A stretch of DNA of 64,000 bases from positions 190,268 to 254,267 of IMG/VR virus record IMGVR_UViG_3300022902_000004; one strand, given 5' to 3'. Below are positions 15,182 through 63,905 of this stretch, in pieces. A program made the translations under genes and the position numbers. The first letter of the stretch is position 1. Every line of letters begins with the position of its first letter. The notes beneath the pieces are model-generated. The model was not told the DNA's origin and made no database searches. It worked only from the letters and a program-made list of their open reading frames with translations. The stretch is from a virus.

Positions 15182-15561
15182 TGCTTTCCTTCAATCGCCG
15201 CAAATAATTCGTCTGCATCTAGTGTTGCCTGCGCTTCAATTTCTTTCGCGACGACTTGTGCAAGTGCCAGGAGTTGGTCATTCGATTTGCTCATTCGCTC
15301 GAGGTACTTTACCAATGTTCCGCCGAGGGCCATATGCTCAGCGGCACCTTGACCGAGCGCGGCGAAGCACTGCGCCAATAATGCGCATGCGGTGGCTCGG
15401 TCGTTGGCTGCGTTGTTGTAGATTTCCGTCCAAAGATATAATTTTTGCTCTTCGACACCTTCAATCTCTTTCAATATTTTCCCGAACGAGCGAATCTTCA
15501 CCTGCGCGGACTTGTCATCCGCCATCAGCTTGTCAACCTTTTTTATATTCGTTGGCTTCAT
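15178..15561 (-). CDS. Hypothetical protein
   Basis: 127-aa ORF. The real start is probably the internal ATG near 15525, just after the stop of the upstream sigma gene. Confidence 0.4.
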   Translation of the reverse strand: MKPTNIKKVDKLMADDKSAQVKIRSFGKILKEIEGVEEQKLYLWTEIYNNAANDRATACALLAQCFAALGQGAAEHMALGGTLVKYLERMSKSNDQLLALAQVVAKEIEAQATLDADELFAAIEGKQ

Positions 15562-16279
15562 CTCTTCGTTCCTCTGCTACCACCTGGGCATAAATCTTTC
15601 TGATTTTGCTCATCGACTTTGTCACTTGCTTCTTTTCAAACCCAGATATCTCTACTAAATAGACATAAATCGATTGCTTGTTTATAAAATCTAGCTCGTC
15701 AACCTGGTCAAACAAGCCTTCAACTGCCGTCATGACTGTTATGTCACGCGGATCGCGAAGACTCTTCTTGATTTTCTTCACCCTGGCAACTTGTTCGACT
15801 TTCCTTTCCCGGAGAAGCATGAGCTCCTCTGTTGAAGGAAGTTCAACAAAATTGGAAATCTGCTTTTGTGTGTCCCTGGAGAGGTGCAACGTATCATTTA
15901 GATACACGTGTTTATAATACTTCTTTCTGTGACTATTCGTCGTGTTGATTAGGAAGTTTTTTGCAACCACATTGAAATACGAGAATGCTTTCGAACCTCG
16001 ATCGGGATTCCACTTATGTAACGAGTTATACAGTGAGTAGCTGCATTCTTCAATCAGTTCAGCAGCAGACATCAGCGGTGACTTGAACCCATATACATAG
16101 ACCAAGCTCTCCGACAACTTCATTATCGCCGGCTTGATTTTGTCGCCGTAAATAATTTCCCTCTGTCGTGTGTCACTCTCGCCTAAAAATGCAAGAATTG
16201 CAACTTCGGTATTTTTGTCAAAGTATAAAACACTTTTGCGGCCGGGCTTTCTTTTGATACGTTTTTTTCTTTTTATCAT
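15533..16279 (-). CDS. T4 gp55-like late-transcription sigma factor
   Basis: 248 aa. The segment DKIKPAIMKLSESL...SKAFSYFNVVAKNFLINTTNSHRKKYYKHVY parallels the T4 gp55 core (…AIMLIAEGL…[21 protein letters not shown]…, recalled from memory). It sits at the head of the structural operon. Confidence 0.45.
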   Translation of the reverse strand: MIKRKKRIKRKPGRKSVLYFDKNTEVAILAFLGESDTRQREIIYGDKIKPAIMKLSESLVYVYGFKSPLMSAAELIEECSYSLYNSLHKWNPDRGSKAFSYFNVVAKNFLINTTNSHRKKYYKHVYLNDTLHLSRDTQKQISNFVELPSTEELMLLRERKVEQVARVKKIKKSLRDPRDITVMTAVEGLFDQVDELDFINKQSIYVYLVEISGFEKKQVTKSMSKIRKIYAQVVAEERRDEANEYKKG

Positions 16280-48984: not shown

Positions 48985-50142
48985 TTATCTGTTTGATGTG
49001 ATGACTCCACCCATACTTTGTAAAATGTTGTCCATACTGTCTTTGGCTCTGGTGCCAACAATTACTGACGAATGTGGTACGGTGAGCTGACAATCATTCA
49101 CATCAAATTTCGTGATGCCAGACCTCGCCGCGAACCGACCTAATGCCAAGAGCGTTTTTGTTCTGTCGATTGAAATACCTTTCAGGGAACCCAAATCCAT
49201 CCCGAACGAAACTGACATTTTCGATTTTGTATTCTTGACAGCCTGATATGTGATTCGGTCGGTGTCAATGCTCATTTTGATGAGCCTTTGCAGTCGTGCC
49301 TTCCTGATTTCGTTACCCATTGCATAAGAAACGCACTCGAATCCAGACTCGACCAAATCTAAAAAATTCCTGTTGCCCCAGTCCGATATTACAAACGGGA
49401 TGACTTTGAGTTTCCCTGACAGCCAGTTCTCAAGCAATGTATTCGATACATCAGGAAGAAAGCCTCGTGCTGCGATTACGATTCCATTATTCCCAGCGGC
49501 ATCGAGCATTTTGTGAATTTGTGCGACGCTTTCAACAATACCATCGATGGCAACTCCATAAAAGTCGCCGCTCTCGTTGGGCACGTCAGCTCGACTGTTG
49601 AATAGCGGGTCAATACTTCCAAAAATCTCTTCACCGGAGACGACCTTGACAACCGTTCCGAAATGATTTCCTTCGACCAGGCTAACATGGCTTCCGCAGG
49701 CACCCATTTGTATCAGCTTTTTTGCGATGGTTCCTGACATTCCATCTCTTGACCATGATGAGATAATTTCATCAACATCGCCTGCAAGTGCATACGATCC
49801 TTGCCTTTTCTTGCCTTTGACATCATCCAGTGAAATTCTGCCCGTCCACAAGAGGCAGGAGATGAGTCCTGAGCCACCCAGGTTGACCTCTGTTGAATAC
49901 AAACAGCTTAGGATGGTGTTTCTTATTGCCACACTGCTTCGGGACGTCTGGGGCCAACGTGAGAGACACCGGTGGAAGTCCAGCGGAACCGCGGTGCAGA
50001 CCTTCCCATCATAATTCAAGGCAATTTTGCCACCAAAAATATCATCGCAAATCTGCCCCAATTCTTGGCGGGCAATCTCTATCGATTTTTTTATCTCTTT
50101 CTGGTTGATACAAGCGCTAGTGGACTGTCTGTTGTTTCTCAT
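48985..50142 (-). CDS. Divergent chaperonin (GroEL/Cpn60)-like protein, truncated
   Basis: 385 aa. …GNNGIVIAARGFLPDVSNTLLENWLSGKLKVIPFVISDWGNRNFLDLVESGFECVS… follows the GroEL apical/intermediate pattern …[56 protein letters not shown]… (from memory). It lacks the GDGTTT ATP motif and the C-terminal equatorial segment. Confidence 0.35.
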   Translation of the reverse strand: MRNNRQSTSACINQKEIKKSIEIARQELGQICDDIFGGKIALNYDGKVCTAVPLDFHRCLSRWPQTSRSSVAIRNTILSCLYSTEVNLGGSGLISCLLWTGRISLDDVKGKKRQGSYALAGDVDEIISSWSRDGMSGTIAKKLIQMGACGSHVSLVEGNHFGTVVKVVSGEEIFGSIDPLFNSRADVPNESGDFYGVAIDGIVESVAQIHKMLDAAGNNGIVIAARGFLPDVSNTLLENWLSGKLKVIPFVISDWGNRNFLDLVESGFECVSYAMGNEIRKARLQRLIKMSIDTDRITYQAVKNTKSKMSVSFGMDLGSLKGISIDRTKTLLALGRFAARSGITKFDVNDCQLTVPHSSVIVGTRAKDSMDNILQSMGGVITSNR

Positions 50143-50368
50143 GACCTTTTTGATTTTCCAATGAGTTGGCGGCCCGACTGATGCTTGCGACGATGTTATG
50201 AAATCCCAGGATTATGTCATTCTTGACTTTCTTGTCCTCGGCTTCCAATGCGAATCGAACGAACCCGCACAGCGCACCCAAAATTAGCAAGATACATCCT
50301 AGCCACGCTTCATGGGTGTATAAATACGCCCCACAAATTACAAGGACCTCTGACATTTTGCCTTTCAT
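50117..50368 (-). CDS. Small membrane protein
   Basis: 83 aa with one long hydrophobic helix. Confidence 0.35.
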   Translation of the reverse strand: MKGKMSEVLVICGAYLYTHEAWLGCILLILGALCGFVRFALEAEDKKVKNDIILGFHNIVASISRAANSLENQKGHEKQQTVH

Positions 50369-52305
50369 TACGAATCACGCCATAGGTTGTTAGAAGCATA
50401 TGTCAAGATTTCTTCGGCACTGTCTTCGTTGTAACCGTATTCCTTGATCATCACACCAACCATCTCGCCGTATTTCTTCTGCTGGTCCTTGTCGCGTGTC
50501 TTCGACTTCGTCACAATTCTTGAGATGTCACGGACAGAGTTGATAAGGTATGATTCGATAGCTTCCTTCAATGGCTCATAGGCCTTGAAATTCACCTTCT
50601 CACCACGACGCATCTTGGCAAACATGTAAGCCGTCACATCACTTCTGAAACCATCACGAGCACTCCCGGTGATACCGATTTGCTCCTCGATGGACGTCAT
50701 GAATTTCTCATCAGGCTTCCGCTCTTCTTGTGTAATACGGTCACGCATTCGTTGGTGGGTCGTGTAAGCTTCAGCATTGTCAAGATAGCTATCAAACAAT
50801 GCCTGAGCCTGCTCCTCATATGCCGCGATGAATGCCTTTGCAATCTCCGTATCGAGGATTTTCAGGTATTCTTCGCGGACAACCTTCTGGATAAGCTCAA
50901 GGCAAGAGTATTTGAATTCCTCATCAGCAATCTGCTCTTTTACACAAGCTGTCAGCGACTCAATCAGCGAAACCGGTGTAATCATATTCTTGTCACTACG
51001 AACGAGTGCCATGTCGATTGCCTTCGTGATGAACCGTGTGGAAATTCCGCTCATGCCTTCATGACGGGCCTCTTCCTTCAAGTCACGGAGATCAACCTTC
51101 TTGACGCGGCCTTTCTCAACAACCTCTTCACCGTTGTAGATTTTCATCTTGGTAACCGGGTCGCATTTAGCCGAAGCCTTCAGGCGGGACATAACACTGA
51201 ACATCGAGGCAACACGCAATGTATGTGGAGCAATGTGGGCGTCAAAATCAGACAGGCCGAGCATTTTCTCGTAAATCTTTATTTCCTGATTCAATTCGAG
51301 ACAGTATGGAACATCAATCTTTACGACACGGTCGATGATTGCTTCATTCGTATGCTCCGACTGGAATCGATTCCACTCAGCTTCATTACAGTGAGCCAAG
51401 ATAACACCATCGAAATGGAGCATATCGTTCTTGCCCGGCGATGGAATTCGCTTTTCCTGTGTTGCCGTGATGATTGTGTGGAGGAACTCAATTTCATTCT
51501 TGAAAACCTCGACCAACTCAACAATTCCACGGTTACCAACATTGAATGCACCATTCAAAGACAGCGCCCTAGGATCATCCTCAGCGTATTTGTCTAATTT
51601 GGAAATGTCAACTGAGCCGATGAGCACCGATACATCCTGACTGTTGGCATCCATTGGGGGAACTGATGCGATTCCTCGGCGGCCTCGTTGTGAGAACGTC
51701 GTTTCTTCAATTTCGAAGTTTTCATATTCGCCACCGAGTTCCTTGAGAAGCTTATGACGAGCGACTGGGCTGATGTCACCATCGATTTTTACGTTCAGGG
51801 CCTTCTCAAATGTCTCACGCAAGCTACGTGGGATCAACTGGAGTGGTTCGCCGCGGTGTGGGTCATTCTTCAGGTAAAAGTATTTCTCGCCCTCAATTGA
51901 GGCTTTGATGTGCTCAACCAACGCAGACTTGCCGGCACCAACAGGGCCCATAAGCAGAAGTACCTGGCGTGATTCTTCACCACGATGAGCTGCTGAGTGT
52001 AGGAATGCCATCACATTTTCAATGACACGCTCCATCCCGAAAAAATGCGGCTCGAAGTAGTCGTAGACCTTGATTGCGTCACCGTCGAAAATCCTGTTTT
52101 TTCTTGGGTCACTATCAGGCATTTTTTTAACGCCTGGGCCAGAGAGTGCTTCATACAAACGACGTTGTGCCGTCTTGGCAAGATGTGGATTTTCTTCCAA
52201 CAGCTTGATGTAATCTGCGAAAGTTCCTGAAAACTTCTGTACCGCCTTGCTTTTTACACGCTGACTTTTGATCGCTGCCAAAAGACTCTTTACATTTTTG
52301 CTCAT
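50368..52305 (-). CDS. prkA: PrkA-family serine protein kinase (AAA+ N-domain)
   Basis: 645 aa, the size of YeaG/PrkA. Walker A LLLMGPVGAGKSAL. It is the third gene of a yhbH-spoVR-prkA array. Confidence 0.8.
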   Translation of the reverse strand: MSKNVKSLLAAIKSQRVKSKAVQKFSGTFADYIKLLEENPHLAKTAQRRLYEALSGPGVKKMPDSDPRKNRIFDGDAIKVYDYFEPHFFGMERVIENVMAFLHSAAHRGEESRQVLLLMGPVGAGKSALVEHIKASIEGEKYFYLKNDPHRGEPLQLIPRSLRETFEKALNVKIDGDISPVARHKLLKELGGEYENFEIEETTFSQRGRRGIASVPPMDANSQDVSVLIGSVDISKLDKYAEDDPRALSLNGAFNVGNRGIVELVEVFKNEIEFLHTIITATQEKRIPSPGKNDMLHFDGVILAHCNEAEWNRFQSEHTNEAIIDRVVKIDVPYCLELNQEIKIYEKMLGLSDFDAHIAPHTLRVASMFSVMSRLKASAKCDPVTKMKIYNGEEVVEKGRVKKVDLRDLKEEARHEGMSGISTRFITKAIDMALVRSDKNMITPVSLIESLTACVKEQIADEEFKYSCLELIQKVVREEYLKILDTEIAKAFIAAYEEQAQALFDSYLDNAEAYTTHQRMRDRITQEERKPDEKFMTSIEEQIGITGSARDGFRSDVTAYMFAKMRRGEKVNFKAYEPLKEAIESYLINSVRDISRIVTKSKTRDKDQQKKYGEMVGVMIKEYGYNEDSAEEILTYASNNLWRDS

Positions 52306-52363
52306 AAATTCCCCTGTATAATTTTGACTATAACCATGTCTCTTGGTTTATAAACCTATTCGT

Positions 52364-53734
52364 TCAAATATCCCAAGCATCACCCTCGATCATCGTGTGG
52401 AATTCTATGTTATTTCCCCATAATGACTTGACGTGCTGGATTGTTTTGTCGGCATATTCCAGCTCTAGATCTCTTCCGTCATGCTCATGATGTAAAATCA
52501 ACGTGCCGTTATCTTCCAAAAGATCAACCTTAATAACTGGAATTCCGGCCGCACCGATTGAACGACACAATGCCTCTCTGACTTTCTTCCAGCCATCTTT
52601 GTCTGAGATGTCATCAATTGACCAAGCATATTTCTTTTCACTCCAACTGAAGAGTCCAAGATCCATCGCCAGATCATGTGTGAGGTACTGCCTAATGAAA
52701 GAAACATCGTTCAGTGATTCCCTGGCAACGAAACATTCTTCCAAACCAAAACGCTCTTTGATGTCCTGGAAAATCTTGAAACCAAGATGGTAAGGGTTCA
52801 ATCCACCGATATGCGGCCGAATTACTCCGTTGTGTGATTTCAGTATTGGAAGGTGGTACTCTGAATCCAGCTCTAAATCGTGACAGATTGTATAGTGCCA
52901 AAAACTAGCCCAACCCTCATTCATGATTTTCGTTTGAATCTGGGGCATAAAGTAACACGATTCGTCTCGCACAACCTCAATAATGTCACGTTTCCAATCG
53001 GGCATTTTCCCATGCTCAGCGATGAAGCCCAGGACATCAGGATCAGGTTCTAGAGGAATAACATCGATGTCGTAAACAATATAGCACCCATCTTCACCCT
53101 TCTCGGCGAGCGAACGATACCACTCGACCATTTCTTTATGCGACCGTCGCTCAGCTCCGGTTCTGTTGATTTGATACTGTAATGCATGACATGAATCGAT
53201 TACTGCTTCCACACGATCAATACCGATTCTCGGATCCTCAACATATTCCTTGATTCTCTTTTTTGCTGCACGAAATCGTCCGATGACTGAGTCAGCTCGG
53301 GTTGAAGCAAACATTCTGTTGTTTTTGAAGAAGTCGCTATGTCCTACGCAGTGTGCCATAATAAGGATCTGCAAATATAGCGGGTTCTCGCGCATCAGGT
53401 ATGCAATCGATGGGTTTGAGTTGATGATGAGCTCGTATGGAAGACCTGACACTCCTGCATTGTACGATTGGTGTGTTCTCTCAAACGATTTTCCATATGA
53501 CCAATGATCATAATGCGTCGGCATACCATGATATGACATGTGGCCAATCATCGAGTAGTAATCACAGATTTCATAATTGATCGGGTACCAATCTAATCCA
53601 TAACCTTCAGCGATCTTTTTGATTTTCTCGTCCCACATTTGTAGGTCTTCAATTGCCCATGTCATATTATGCTCCCCTGTTTCCAAACATGACCTTGAAC
53701 GCCGGCCATACATCTTCTTTCGATGCAATTTCAA
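52364..53734 (-). CDS. spoVR: SpoVR/YcgB-family protein
   Basis: ~450 aa, sitting between DUF444 and PrkA. The likely start is the ATG near 53665 (MTWAIEDL…), 2 nt after the upstream stop. Confidence 0.65.
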   Translation of the reverse strand: MKLHRKKMYGRRSRSCLETGEHNMTWAIEDLQMWDEKIKKIAEGYGLDWYPINYEICDYYSMIGHMSYHGMPTHYDHWSYGKSFERTHQSYNAGVSGLPYELIINSNPSIAYLMRENPLYLQILIMAHCVGHSDFFKNNRMFASTRADSVIGRFRAAKKRIKEYVEDPRIGIDRVEAVIDSCHALQYQINRTGAERRSHKEMVEWYRSLAEKGEDGCYIVYDIDVIPLEPDPDVLGFIAEHGKMPDWKRDIIEVVRDESCYFMPQIQTKIMNEGWASFWHYTICHDLELDSEYHLPILKSHNGVIRPHIGGLNPYHLGFKIFQDIKERFGLEECFVARESLNDVSFIRQYLTHDLAMDLGLFSWSEKKYAWSIDDISDKDGWKKVREALCRSIGAAGIPVIKVDLLEDNGTLILHHEHDGRDLELEYADKTIQHVKSLWGNNIEFHTMIEGDAWDI

Positions 53735-61916: not shown

Positions 61917-62663
61917 TTATGCTGCAACTCGAAGCAGCGTTTTGAACCCAGTTTTCTTGAGCTCAAGGAAGTATTTGTGGCCAGCACCACCGAAACGATT
62001 CTTGGTCGTCTCGAGCATACGCATTCCGTACAGCTCAGAGCTGGGATTTAGCTCGATGGAAAGCTCGATCATGGCATCAACCATGTGTTTCAGGACGTTT
62101 TTGCCTGAGAATTTGCCATCTTTACCAACCTGGCCAATCACGAAAGCAATCGAATTGGTTTCCTTACACCAATCTGTAATCATGCTCAAGCAACGCTCAG
62201 GGGACTTGCCGTTTGTGATTCCAGGACCGTACTTGCCATCATTCACAGCCTGAAGGCTGTCAACGACCAAGATAAACTGCTTTTTTGGATGCTGGAGTCG
62301 AAGCTCCTCACACTGGCGAAGCAGCTCGGGAACCATCTCCTCTTCACCTACAGCGAAGCCATGCTTGATATTCAGGCGCTCTGCAACGAGTTTGACCTGA
62401 AACAGACTCTCCTCGGCGGTATTGAAGGCAACATTGTGACCTAGACTCGACAGGCTTTCGCAAAGTTCGAGCATCATCGTGGATTTACCGGCACCAGGTG
62501 TTCCAGTGAACAAAGTGCATGTGCTTGGGGTGAGTCCAAGACCGCCCATTGCACCATCGATGTAATCCCGACCAGTTTTAACTTTCACACGGAGTGCAGC
62601 CGGAACAACAACGTTGTTGATGTTGGTACCGAAAGCGAAGCCTTTGCGAGTTGACAATTTCAT
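61917..62663 (-). CDS. RecA-fold ATPase (Sak4/KaiC/RadA-like)
   Basis: 248 aa with Walker A FTGTPGAGKST and a RecA-like core. An AAGGA Shine-Dalgarno and a conserved promoter motif lie upstream. Confidence 0.6.
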   Translation of the reverse strand: MKLSTRKGFAFGTNINNVVVPAALRVKVKTGRDYIDGAMGGLGLTPSTCTLFTGTPGAGKSTMMLELCESLSSLGHNVAFNTAEESLFQVKLVAERLNIKHGFAVGEEEMVPELLRQCEELRLQHPKKQFILVVDSLQAVNDGKYGPGITNGKSPERCLSMITDWCKETNSIAFVIGQVGKDGKFSGKNVLKHMVDAMIELSIELNPSSELYGMRMLETTKNRFGGAGHKYFLELKKTGFKTLLRVAA

Positions 62664-62722
62664 GTGATTTAATCCTTGATCAGGCTGAGTTATGACTCGT
62701 TACCATCCCCGGCAACATATAT

Positions 62723-62752
62723 ATTATACCACGATTTTCGGACTCTTACACG
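62723..62752 (-). promoter_or_regulatory. Conserved promoter-like motif copy A (minus strand: CGTGTAAGAGTCCGAAAATCGTGGTATAAT)
   Basis: Extended -10 TGGTATAAT on the minus strand about 65 nt upstream of the RecA-like ATG. Near-identical copy at 63876..63905. Confidence 0.5.
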
Positions 62753-62756
62753 TAAT

Positions 62757-63050
62757 CTACTTAACGTTGCAAAGAATTTCTGGTTTGACGGCGCCGTCTG
62801 GCAACGCTACGACACAATGGACGCTGGCATTTGAGATGTGCGATTTATGGGCCCGCCGGCGATCCTGTGGCGAATCGAAGAACCCTCCCCATGTCAGCAC
62901 CCCTAGGACAAGCGCAGTGCCGAAAAGGCTCGCGAAGAAGTTGGTCTTAGTTTCTTTTCCATGCAACGTCATGACGACAAAAAGGCTGACGACGGTGAGA
63001 CATAGATAAATAATTGCCGCTGCGCTCATTTGTTTTTCCTCTTTTTCCAT
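62757..63050 (-). CDS. Small membrane protein
   Basis: 97 aa with two hydrophobic helices. Confidence 0.4.
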   Translation of the reverse strand: MEKEEKQMSAAAIIYLCLTVVSLFVVMTLHGKETKTNFFASLFGTALVLGVLTWGGFFDSPQDRRRAHKSHISNASVHCVVALPDGAVKPEILCNVK

Positions 63051-63517
63051 GCAATGAATTGATCCAACTCATCGCTGCTAATGTTTTTCACTATTTCCTG
63101 TTTGGCTTCCCACTCGGCAAGCTCCCTCGTATACTTCTTGTCTGCTTTCTTACAATCTCGCTCGAACCGCTTGTAATTTTTGAGCTGCTCATCGTAATCC
63201 GGATTTTCGAGTTCAACTGAGACGTTTACCTCGACCTCAACGCTGACCTCTTCGTCCTCATCCCATGGCCGCTGAGTCTCGATCAGGACATCTGGATCAT
63301 TAATTCGAATGAACCCAGGCCGATCTCTCCACAATTCTGCATCTTCTAGAACAGTCTGCTTTCGCTCTTCAAGCTCCCCGAAATCAATAGTTGATTCTCC
63401 GTTGAATGAAAAAACTGGGGAGCGCACGATTACAACACTTGTTTTTGAGGGACTCTGGACAAGTTTGATAAGCGTGCGCTTTGGGCGCAGCCCTTTTGGG
63501 CCTAATGCGAGTTTCAT
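63026..63517 (-). CDS. Hypothetical protein
   Basis: 163-aa ORF rich in charged residues. Confidence 0.4.
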   Translation of the reverse strand: MKLALGPKGLRPKRTLIKLVQSPSKTSVVIVRSPVFSFNGESTIDFGELEERKQTVLEDAELWRDRPGFIRINDPDVLIETQRPWDEDEEVSVEVEVNVSVELENPDYDEQLKNYKRFERDCKKADKKYTRELAEWEAKQEIVKNISSDELDQFIAWKKRKNK

Positions 63518-63538
63518 TTTATTTCTCCGTTCTCAAAA

Positions 63539-63608
63539 TGGTTCCCAACCGGGGAGTCGAACCCCGCGTCCCGCCTGCAGTTCAGGACCTACGCCAAAAT
63601 TATTGGGA
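63539..63608 (-). tRNA. tRNA-like element (canonical T-arm + acceptor stem + CCA; body non-canonical) - partial tRNA or att-site-like
   Basis: Minus strand reads TCCCAAT…CGGGG-TTCGACT-CCCCG-GTTGGGA-A-CCA. That gives a T-loop TTCGACT, a 5-bp T-stem and a 7-bp acceptor pairing with the 5' TCCCAAT. I could not hand-fold the D and anticodon arms canonically. Total length is 70 nt. Confidence 0.4.
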
Positions 63609-63654
63609 AAACGTCAAACTTTATCTTTTTCCTAACATTCCATGTTTTTTGATG

Positions 63655-63684
63655 CCCTAGGTCGACGCCGACCTTAACTTAGGG
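63655..63684. promoter_or_regulatory. Nested hairpin CCCTA-…GGTCG-ACGC-CGACC…-TAGGG
   Basis: Inverted repeats read from the sequence, just upstream (in minus-strand terms) of the tRNA-like element. Confidence 0.35.
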
Positions 63685-63799
63685 CTGGTCTCGGATGCGA
63701 TTCATTACGCCCTCCTGACGATGTCTAGCTTTGTAATCACACAATTTATTCCGTTCATGTTATTTTCGCCGCCCCCGGCAGTGGGTCACATTTTCGGGG

Positions 63800-63830
63800 G
63801 CCCTCGTGGGCTTGGCATTATTTTGCTCCA
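63800..63830. promoter_or_regulatory. GC-clamp hairpin GCCCCCG-N17-CGGGGGC containing two ATTTTCG(G) motif copies
   Basis: 7-bp GC stem with a 17-nt loop. It lies downstream of promoter motif copy B in the leader preceding the tRNA-like element. Confidence 0.4.
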
Positions 63831-63875
63831 TTTAGTTTATTGACTGTTTTAGAGTCGCATCCCGGTGACATATCC

Positions 63876-63905
63876 ATTATACCACGATTTTCGGTGCTTT
63901 ACACG
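63876..63905 (-). promoter_or_regulatory. Conserved promoter-like motif copy B (minus strand: CGTGTAAAGCACCGAAAATCGTGGTATAAT)
   Basis: Matches copy A at 26 of 30 positions, and the -10 is TGGTATAAT. It overlaps the last codons of the partial upstream gene. Confidence 0.5.

Follow-up and report, generated by a model that had tools for sequence, protein, structure and literature searches.

Two related elements of 30 bp on the minus strand of a 64,000-nucleotide stretch of viral DNA (IMG/VR record IMGVR_UViG_3300022902_000004, positions 190,268 to 254,267; the whole stretch is called the window below) are, with a probability that we put at about 0.78, early-gene expression cassettes of a large uncultured marine phage, in which a host-polymerase promoter is combined with an RNA hairpin. 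As read from its sequence, the phage would have such an early promoter in front of nearly every one of its early genes. A cassette would begin at, or overlap, the stop codon of the preceding gene and would contain, in this order, GTGTAA at the -35 position, a 17-bp variable spacer, TG at -15/-14, TATAAT, T at -1 and a purine at +1. Often it would continue with a hairpin of 5-7 bp from the first or second transcribed nucleotide, and the Shine-Dalgarno sequence and start codon would follow about 40 nucleotides (nt) past the -10. Judging from geometry and context, these promoters are most likely used by the RNA polymerase holoenzyme of the host immediately after infection, while the hairpin would act in the RNA, most plausibly by shielding its 5' end from 5'-end-dependent decay. 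Since they are repeats of about 50 nt that occur about once per kb, the cassettes would also serve as homology patches for recombination.

The cassette family in the genome and in metagenomes

Copy 1, CGTGTAAGAGTCCGAAAATCGTGGTATAAT, lies at 62752-62723 of the minus strand and contains the GTGTAA box at 62751-62746, the extended -10 TGGTATAAT at 62731-62723 and a predicted +1 G at 62716. Copy 2, CGTGTAAAGCACCGAAAATCGTGGTATAAT, which is the upstream one of the pair in transcription order, lies at 63905-63876 of the same strand, with its box at 63904-63899, TGGTATAAT at 63884-63876 and a predicted +1 G at 63869. The layout is common to both: CGTGTAA, a variable spacer of 14 nt and the extended -10. 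The preliminary description of this DNA had reported the two 30-mers, their identity at 26 of 30 positions and the TGnTATAAT extended -10 at the end of each; coordinates and match count were reproduced, and TGGTATAAT terminates both copies. The repeat is longer than noted there, since a repeat finder gives 45 nt with 82% identity and a period of 1,153 bp, extending past TATAAT into ATATGTnnCCGGG. Even a search tolerating 3 mismatches finds only two occurrences in the window of the 19-mer common to both copies, CCGAAAATCGTGGTATAAT, and 0 of 100 dinucleotide-preserving shuffles of the window produced a match.

There is also a weak family member, TGTGTAA-N14-TGTTAGAAT, at 57629-57600 (minus strand), which is devoid of a hairpin and is kept in a close relative. 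The ATG of gene 57578-57150 comes 21 nt after its -10. The existence of this third element had been correctly anticipated, but it was described as permuted, and it is in fact collinear and in the same register as the other two.

The same genome was recovered by exact-protein look-up as a 184.5-kb ENA contig (ERZ27250255, k141_352318; L002 in the following), which adds about 9.5 kb past the right edge of the window. Each TGGTATAAT in L002 has CGTGTAA 14 nt upstream of it. There are 11 strong copies in 11 kb, or 12 copies in 16 kb when the weak 57.6-kb member is included, and all of them are on the coding strand; the rest of the window (57 kb) contains only the one weak copy. The preliminary description had named enrichment in intergenic regions as a check of the motif, and such enrichment was found: the predicted start sites are intergenic in 12 of 12 cases, while intergenic DNA makes up 11.6% of L002 (p ~5e-11 for the 11 strong copies). 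The first 11 kb of L002, a region composed of small genes without Pfam matches, have 12 gaps that measure 40 nt or more, and 11 of these contain a cassette. In 10 of the 11 strong copies the distance from the -10 to a start codon preceded by a Shine-Dalgarno sequence is 37-59 nt, the exception being copy 2, which is followed by a 358-nt leader. For copy 1 this distance, measured to the ATG of a downstream ATPase gene, is 59 nt, in agreement with the "about 65 nt" first given. In three cassettes (L002 7631-7637, 8504-8510 and 15889-15895, the last one being the TGTGTAA box at 57629-57623 of the window) the TAA of the box doubles as the stop codon of the upstream gene. The packing of genes and cassettes is extremely compact.

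A search pattern of 19 specified bases was found in at least 113 stretches of marine metagenomes (TARA and many JGI ocean samples), about 4 being expected by estimate, and IMG/VR provided three more stretches. Altogether, the family comprises at least 145 distinct copies at 115 loci. The same pattern gave 5 matches in 185,579 cellular genomes, which is estimated to be about chance level. As a clue to the host these matches were discarded: the three in Tenacibaculum represent one homologous site, and none of the cellular matches has the cassette hairpin or the start region. The single exact match of the 19-mer in IMG/VR (L001) was also rejected as a chance match, as it is located inside a coding region of an unrelated AT-rich contig. 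When the motif strings were searched in the literature, nothing but unrelated primer sequences came up.

Inside the window only two or three copies are visible, so that a chance resemblance, or a simple local duplication without any function, could be thought of. This idea is already refuted by the shuffles, by the 12 copies in the genome and the 145 distinct ones in marine metagenomes, and by their strictly intergenic location and common orientation with the genes, and its probability is practically nil.

The family consensus is CGTGTAA-N14-TGGTATAAT, with GTGTAA at the -35 position and a 17-bp spacer to TATAAT; the TG is placed at -15/-14, the hexamer at -12 to -7, a pyrimidine at -1 and a purine at +1. 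The profile of the family also shows conservation outside the search pattern. Just ahead of the TG there is a pyrimidine followed by a purine, the 7th nucleotide after the -10 is a purine in 99% of the copies and is followed by T, and G-rich positions appear about 8 nt further. T-A-T is found at -3 to -1, with T at -1 in 88% of copies; as these three positions belonged to the search pattern, part of this conservation is due to ascertainment. None of the first 12 positions of the 14-nt spacer reaches 0.3 bit, and the ten positions upstream of the box carry at most 0.16 bit, with A/T no higher than background and no AT-rich tract.

These values bear on the proposal that GTGTAA and CCGAAAAT together form a binding site with a ATTTTCGG core. 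CCGAAAAT belongs to the low-information spacer, it is present at the position in question in only 4 of 145 family members, and nothing of it is left in orthologous promoters (see below). It is not enriched in the window either (6 copies versus 4.08 expected; 18 of 100 shuffles reach as many), and beside the 57.6-kb element it is located upstream of the box, a different position from that in copies 1 and 2. The binding-site proposal is not supported: CCGAAAAT is just a spacer variant carried by this pair, and incidental.

Diverged relatives, AT-rich ones included, show a strong enrichment of GTG(T/C)AA-N16-18-TAnAAT on the coding strand. For instance, L011 (37% GC) contains 9 copies of GTGYAA-N16-18-TAnAAT versus 0.13 expected. 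In the AT-rich relatives the promoter is present without the TG extension and without the hairpin. The promoter directly upstream of the ATPase gene can be followed through seven relatives, whose ATPases are 98, 73, 66, 66, 55, 53 and 51% identical to that of the phage. With respect to the end of the preceding gene, this promoter starts 4 nt from it in L002 and overlaps it by about 29 nt in L045. The -35 box and the -10 are kept among the orthologues and the spacers are unrelated (GAGTCCGAAAATCG, GTTTGGTCTGGGCG, GTACGCTCTACATG and CTCGGAGCAGGCTG); therefore the proposed ATTTTCGG core falls, and there is good evidence that the box and the -10 would be the functional parts. Spacer variants such as GAGTCCGAAAATCG recur at non-orthologous positions, as at L028 1670, and the box is conserved across phages of 30-51% GC.

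In its geometry a cassette corresponds to an extended -10 promoter of a bacterial housekeeping sigma, and the cassettes are predicted to be active as promoters. Extended -10 (TGnTATAAT) promoters of bacterial housekeeping sigma factors include strong phage early promoters. The cassettes resemble them in the TG one base before TATAAT, the 17-bp spacer, the pyrimidine at -1 and the purine at +1. However, extended -10 promoters usually tolerate a degenerate -35, whereas in the cassettes a specific non-consensus hexamer is invariant. The initial suggestion that these are phage promoters of one family, sharing an extended -10 and an element conserved upstream of it, is supported by the common orientation, the intergenic starts, the sigma-70-type geometry and the maintenance of the ATPase promoter in relatives.

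The hairpin at the predicted 5' end of the transcripts

The conserved start region and a hairpin at the predicted 5' end of the transcript were both overlooked in the preliminary description. In copy 1 the hairpin GTTGCC-GGGGAT-GGTAAC (62699-62716, minus strand; -8.4 kcal/mol) begins at the predicted +1. The first 26 nt from the predicted +1 of the 11 strong L002 copies have a mean folding energy of -8.95 kcal/mol versus -5.23 (standard deviation 0.65) for shuffles, random genomic windows used as a control giving -2.89 (standard deviation 0.72). When 28 nt from the predicted +1 are considered in the 145 copies, the mean is -6.15 kcal/mol versus -3.51 for shuffles (Wilcoxon p = 4e-18), and the hairpin starts at +1 or +2 in 61 of them. 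The sense strand is the more stable one in 99 copies and the antisense strand in 36 (p = 1.7e-8). Such an advantage is as expected for an RNA hairpin containing G·U pairs and points to an RNA element.

The stems vary among copies and their complementarity is kept: GTCACC/GGTGAC, GTCGCC/GGCGAC, GTCCCC/GGGGAC, GCCGG/CCGGC, GGCGG/CCGCC, CCTGG/CCAGG and GTTCC/GGAAC have been found. When ten same-register examples are folded to a consensus, two pairs turn out to have compensatory changes, although these examples were chosen by hand and the fold is illustrative only. The L002 hairpins are G/C-rich with CCGGGG cores, with stems of 5-7 bp and about -9 kcal/mol.

A 5' hairpin without a 5' overhang protects bacterial messenger RNAs from 5'-end-dependent decay. 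Emory, Bouvet and Belasco reportedly described in 1992 the 5' untranslated region of Escherichia coli ompA as a 5'-terminal stem-loop that stabilises the messenger. The cassettes are similar to this region in that the hairpin is at the very 5' end, with few or no unpaired nucleotides, and in that the sense strand is the more stable one. In contrast to ompA, the cassette hairpin belongs to a repeated promoter cassette, and its stabilising effect is putative.

The nearest known arrangement is that of the promoter-early stem-loops (PeSLs) of the T4-like myoviruses RB49/phi1, PST/T4 and nt-1/KVP40 (Arbiol et al. 2010, PMC2839356; Comeau et al. 2014, PMC4122927). A PeSL is a repeated cassette composed of a strong sigma-70-type promoter and a G/C-rich stem-loop, located before ORFans in hyperplastic regions; PeSLs mark the junctions of indels by which close relatives differ, and mini-circles can be excised by them (PMC2839356; PMC4122927). 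The promoter consensus differs by group (TTGACA, TTTACW or TTGYVH), in one subclass the stem-loop lies past the -10, on its downstream side, and promoter activity, terminator activity and mini-circles have been shown experimentally (PMC2839356; PMC4122927). Elements called PmSLs are also mentioned in PMC4122927.

The cassettes described here can be filed as belonging to the PeSL kind, that is, to an arrangement already described in T4-like phages. As in PeSLs, a short repeated intergenic cassette presents, here at the sequence level, an N17 sigma-70-type promoter, a stem-loop, a Shine-Dalgarno sequence and an ATG; the cassettes are dense in an early region rich in ORFans, directly upstream of small genes, and the position of the stem-loop downstream of the -10 is that of the PeSL subclass mentioned above. 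However, there are several differences. The box is GTGTAA and not any of the three PeSL consensus sequences, there is no AT-rich tract upstream of it, and the stem-loop, which starts at the predicted +1, has no terminator features and behaves as an RNA element. In addition, the carrier is an uncultured marine lineage, which may or may not be T4-like, and the promoter activity of its cassettes is predicted.

The hairpin could nevertheless serve, as proposed for the original PeSLs, to stop or attenuate read-through from upstream, the cassette then being a promoter-terminator composite. G/C-rich PeSL stem-loops cut reporter expression as strongly as a strong terminator does (PMC2839356), and the hairpins found here are likewise G/C-rich, with their CCGGGG cores. 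However, none of the hairpins printed for L002 or for the close relative is followed by a T run and, because of this, they are unlike intrinsic terminators, which have a U tract. A terminator scan of the window listed nothing at the cassette hairpins either. Moreover, the stems have only 5-7 bp, at about -9 kcal/mol, and a hairpin located downstream of the -10, in its own transcript, would attenuate its own promoter too. Termination as the main function is, then, rather unlikely.

Recognition of the promoter

Several observations weigh against host-polymerase promoters followed by an RNA hairpin as the whole explanation. GTGTAA matches TTGACA at 3 of 6 positions and is invariant all the same. 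A simple sigma-70 scan of the window does not list the cassette sites, because this match is under its 4-of-6 rule; the earlier remark that the box is not a plain sigma-70 -35 was therefore fair. A box that is non-consensus yet invariant may be recognised by a factor different from the usual sigma of a host. With respect to the hairpin, that of copy 2 (GTCACCGGGATGCGAC, 63854-63869, minus strand) has -1.6 kcal/mol and is the weakest among the 11 strong copies; about half of the 145 copies reach -6 kcal/mol or better and the other half have no stable hairpin, and the suggested role in RNA stability is deduced from position alone. With respect to recombination, spacers of neighbouring cassettes are no more similar than those of distant ones (permutation p = 0.7), a result that also led us to reject neighbouring cassettes as recent duplicates, and the two genomes that differ by the accessory module described below are compatible with either direction of the indel.

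The promoters of T4 middle genes offer a precedent for a different recognition. In these promoters a MotA box of the TGCTT type is used with MotA and AsiA, at about 12 bp from the -10. The cassettes are similar in that a good -10 is preceded by a conserved box of non-canonical sequence in place of the -35; they differ in the sequence of the box and in its distance to the -10, GTGTAA at 17 bp as compared with TGCTT at about 12 bp. By analogy, GTGTAA could be bound by an activator or a sigma-remodelling protein that the phage encodes or injects, with the host sigma reading the -10. This is what might be expected from a box that differs from TTGACA yet is invariant upstream of every TGGTATAAT of L002, that is kept in relatives of 30-51% GC, which probably infect different hosts, and whose sites are not listed by the sigma-70 scan.

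However, the box is exactly at the position of the -35 hexamer, with the optimal 17-bp spacer, and it retains T and G at hexamer positions 2 and 3, which are among the most important ones in a -35 element. Given a perfect TATAAT with the TG extension, the promoter should function unaided. The cassettes precede nearly every gene of the ORFan-rich region examined and, if this region is transcribed first, no phage protein would be there yet unless it were injected. Neither a Pfam or PHROG match to a transcription factor among the nearby open reading frames (ORFs) checked nor a match to the MotA/AsiA families among the ORFs scanned was found, no search aimed at MotA/AsiA having been made. Dependence on such a phage protein is, on balance, unlikely, and reading of the whole promoter by the host holoenzyme is preferred.

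A broader idea is that GTG(T/C)AA constitutes a recognition code specific to this lineage, read either by a -35-reading factor that the phages carry or inject, as a sigma-appropriation system unrelated to MotA/AsiA, or by a group of bacterial hosts with a housekeeping sigma that favours GTGTAA over TTGACA. The GTG(T/C)AA box is invariant in a cosmopolitan clade of marine phages of 30-51% GC and persists in relatives where both the TG extension and the hairpin are lost. This idea is speculative, and we consider it rather improbable.

The accessory module and the genome of the phage

A close relative syntenic with the phage, Ga0307989_1000322 (L028 and L045; protein identity 53-98%), has one cassette where the phage has two. 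In the nucleotide alignment L002 9658-10761 is missing from it, and the flanks align to a single cassette with an overlap of 48 nt. This cassette is chimeric: its upstream flank corresponds to copy 2, and its spacer (GAGTCAGAAAATCG), hairpin and downstream flank correspond to copy 1. Therefore, the pair flanks an accessory module of 1,153 bp (62753-63875, minus strand), a bracketing that was not noticed in the preliminary description. Either the module was inserted in this phage or it was deleted in the relative, probably through a recombination event inside the cassette. PeSLs likewise show, at an indel junction, a pair of cassettes in one phage and a single chimeric one in its relative. A second indel (L002 8474-9021) includes a cassette together with its ORFs and has its start about 30 nt upstream of that cassette, and for a third one, of 252 bp, the end is about 17 nt upstream of another cassette.

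Since cassettes flank an indel, the repeats might be primarily DNA sites for a dedicated recombinase, like integron attC, their likeness to promoters being secondary; the hairpin could form in single-stranded DNA, and the authors of the PeSL work speculated on a stem-loop-binding protein (PMC2839356). This is very unlikely. Conservation falls exactly on the promoter elements and on the start site, the start codon follows at a fixed distance, and folding is better in the sense than in the antisense strand, as an indication of RNA. Distant relatives retain the promoter and not the hairpin, and no recombinase family match was found in the early-region genes looked at. Expression cassettes that also provide homology for recombination remain the preferred explanation.

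The module consists of the 358-nt leader (63518-63875) and two genes, all on the minus strand. The first gene, ORF163 (63026-63517), has no Pfam or PHROGs match, and the second one, ORF97 (62757-63050), matches phrog_5479, a family of unknown function. No copy of either was found in other contexts, save one weak ORF97-like match. Copy 1 is followed by the gene of a KaiC/RadA-like P-loop ATPase (61917-62663, minus strand), initially called RecA-like, which is predicted to be driven from the copy 1 promoter. In a separate relative of 51% GC, L022 (Ga0209128_1000767), two pairs of adjacent cassettes on the minus strand (1196/1631 and 3434/4677), with spacers differing by 1 mismatch in each pair, enclose segments of 435 bp and 1,243 bp, which may be further cassette-flanked modules.

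The leader opens with a mini-ORF of 10 proline-rich codons, MPSPRGPPKM (63827-63795, minus strand), preceded by a Shine-Dalgarno sequence. Its end overlaps a 7-bp G/C hairpin, GCCCCCG...CGGGGGC, at 63801-63771 (minus strand); the preliminary description had placed a hairpin containing CCGAAAAT at 63800-63830, a location that has to be corrected accordingly. Two more mini-ORFs with Shine-Dalgarno sequences follow, and the whole could be a regulator of the leader-peptide style. The leader is closed by a transfer RNA (tRNA)-like element of 70 nt (63608-63539, minus strand) with a 7-bp acceptor stem (TCCCAAT/GTTGGGA), a canonical T arm (CGGGG-TTCGACT-CCCCG), discriminator A and an encoded CCA, and without a proper D arm. 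ARAGORN found nothing in standard mode and detected this element only in the metazoan-mitochondrial mode or with a relaxed threshold. In the window no Rfam family reached its gathering score, and only a 17-nt fragment of the T arm scored. The element may be a tRNA, either decayed or minimal, or it may serve as a signal for processing. The leader was also considered as a conserved structured RNA and rejected as such: it was found only in identical copies of this phage, and its folding z is -0.72. Its 3' end has no exact match in IMG/VR.

Nearly all the long ORFs of the window are on the minus strand. Besides the KaiC/RadA-like ATPase, they include baseplate wedge proteins, glycosyltransferases, sugar-modifying enzymes, a B12-binding radical SAM enzyme, a PIN-PhoH protein, a PrkA / DUF444 / SpoVR trio, a ClpP-like protease and a helicase. 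The DUF444(YeaH)-PrkA-SpoVR genes are contiguous (48985-53734, minus strand) and are normally associated with stress or sporulation in bacteria; among phages, the nearest homologues (about 31-34% identity) come from Thermus phages, from Ralstonia phage RsoM2USA and from huge uncultured phages. Past the left edge of the window, a gene similar to those of GIY-YIG/NUMOD3 homing endonucleases (L135 20760-21179; k141_352318) lies amid large tail-fibre-like genes. Further along the L002 contig there are only large proteins without informative family matches.

The affiliation of the phage to the T4-like group has points on both sides. The baseplate wedge matches are accompanied by weak matches of a 248-residue product (ORF 15533-16279, minus strand) to phrog_234 "late sigma transcription factor" (E = 7.6e-5) and to Sigma70_r2 (E = 0.0027, below the cutoff). 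This protein may be a phage late sigma factor and, if real, it would imply the use of the host core enzyme. On the other hand, megablast found no nucleotide match to the region among deposited phages, protein matches are at most 33% identical, and the T4-type late promoter motif TATAAATA is not enriched. Another short sequence, GATATTTA, is present in 5 copies versus 2.0 expected, all on the coding strand (12705-12698, 46194-46187, 59888-59881, 61412-61405 and 33510-33503, minus strand). Four of these copies are in short intergenic gaps just upstream of start codons, and GATATTTA is a candidate for a second, middle or late, class of promoter.

The motif provides a marker, searchable by sequence, of the early transcription units of an abundant lineage of uncultured marine phages, present in more than 113 metagenome stretches. 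Its functional parts would be the GTGTAA box, the extended -10, the start region and the RNA hairpin, CCGAAAAT being incidental. The PeSL idea, in which promoter cassettes are also recombination linkers that shuffle accessory genes, is thereby extended beyond the cultured T4-like coliphages and vibriophages. If one feature could reveal a new control of RNA polymerase by host or phage, it is the -35 box, non-consensus and yet invariant. If its reading as a recognition code were true, the motif could tag the early genes, and perhaps the hosts, of an uncultured clade directly from metagenomes.

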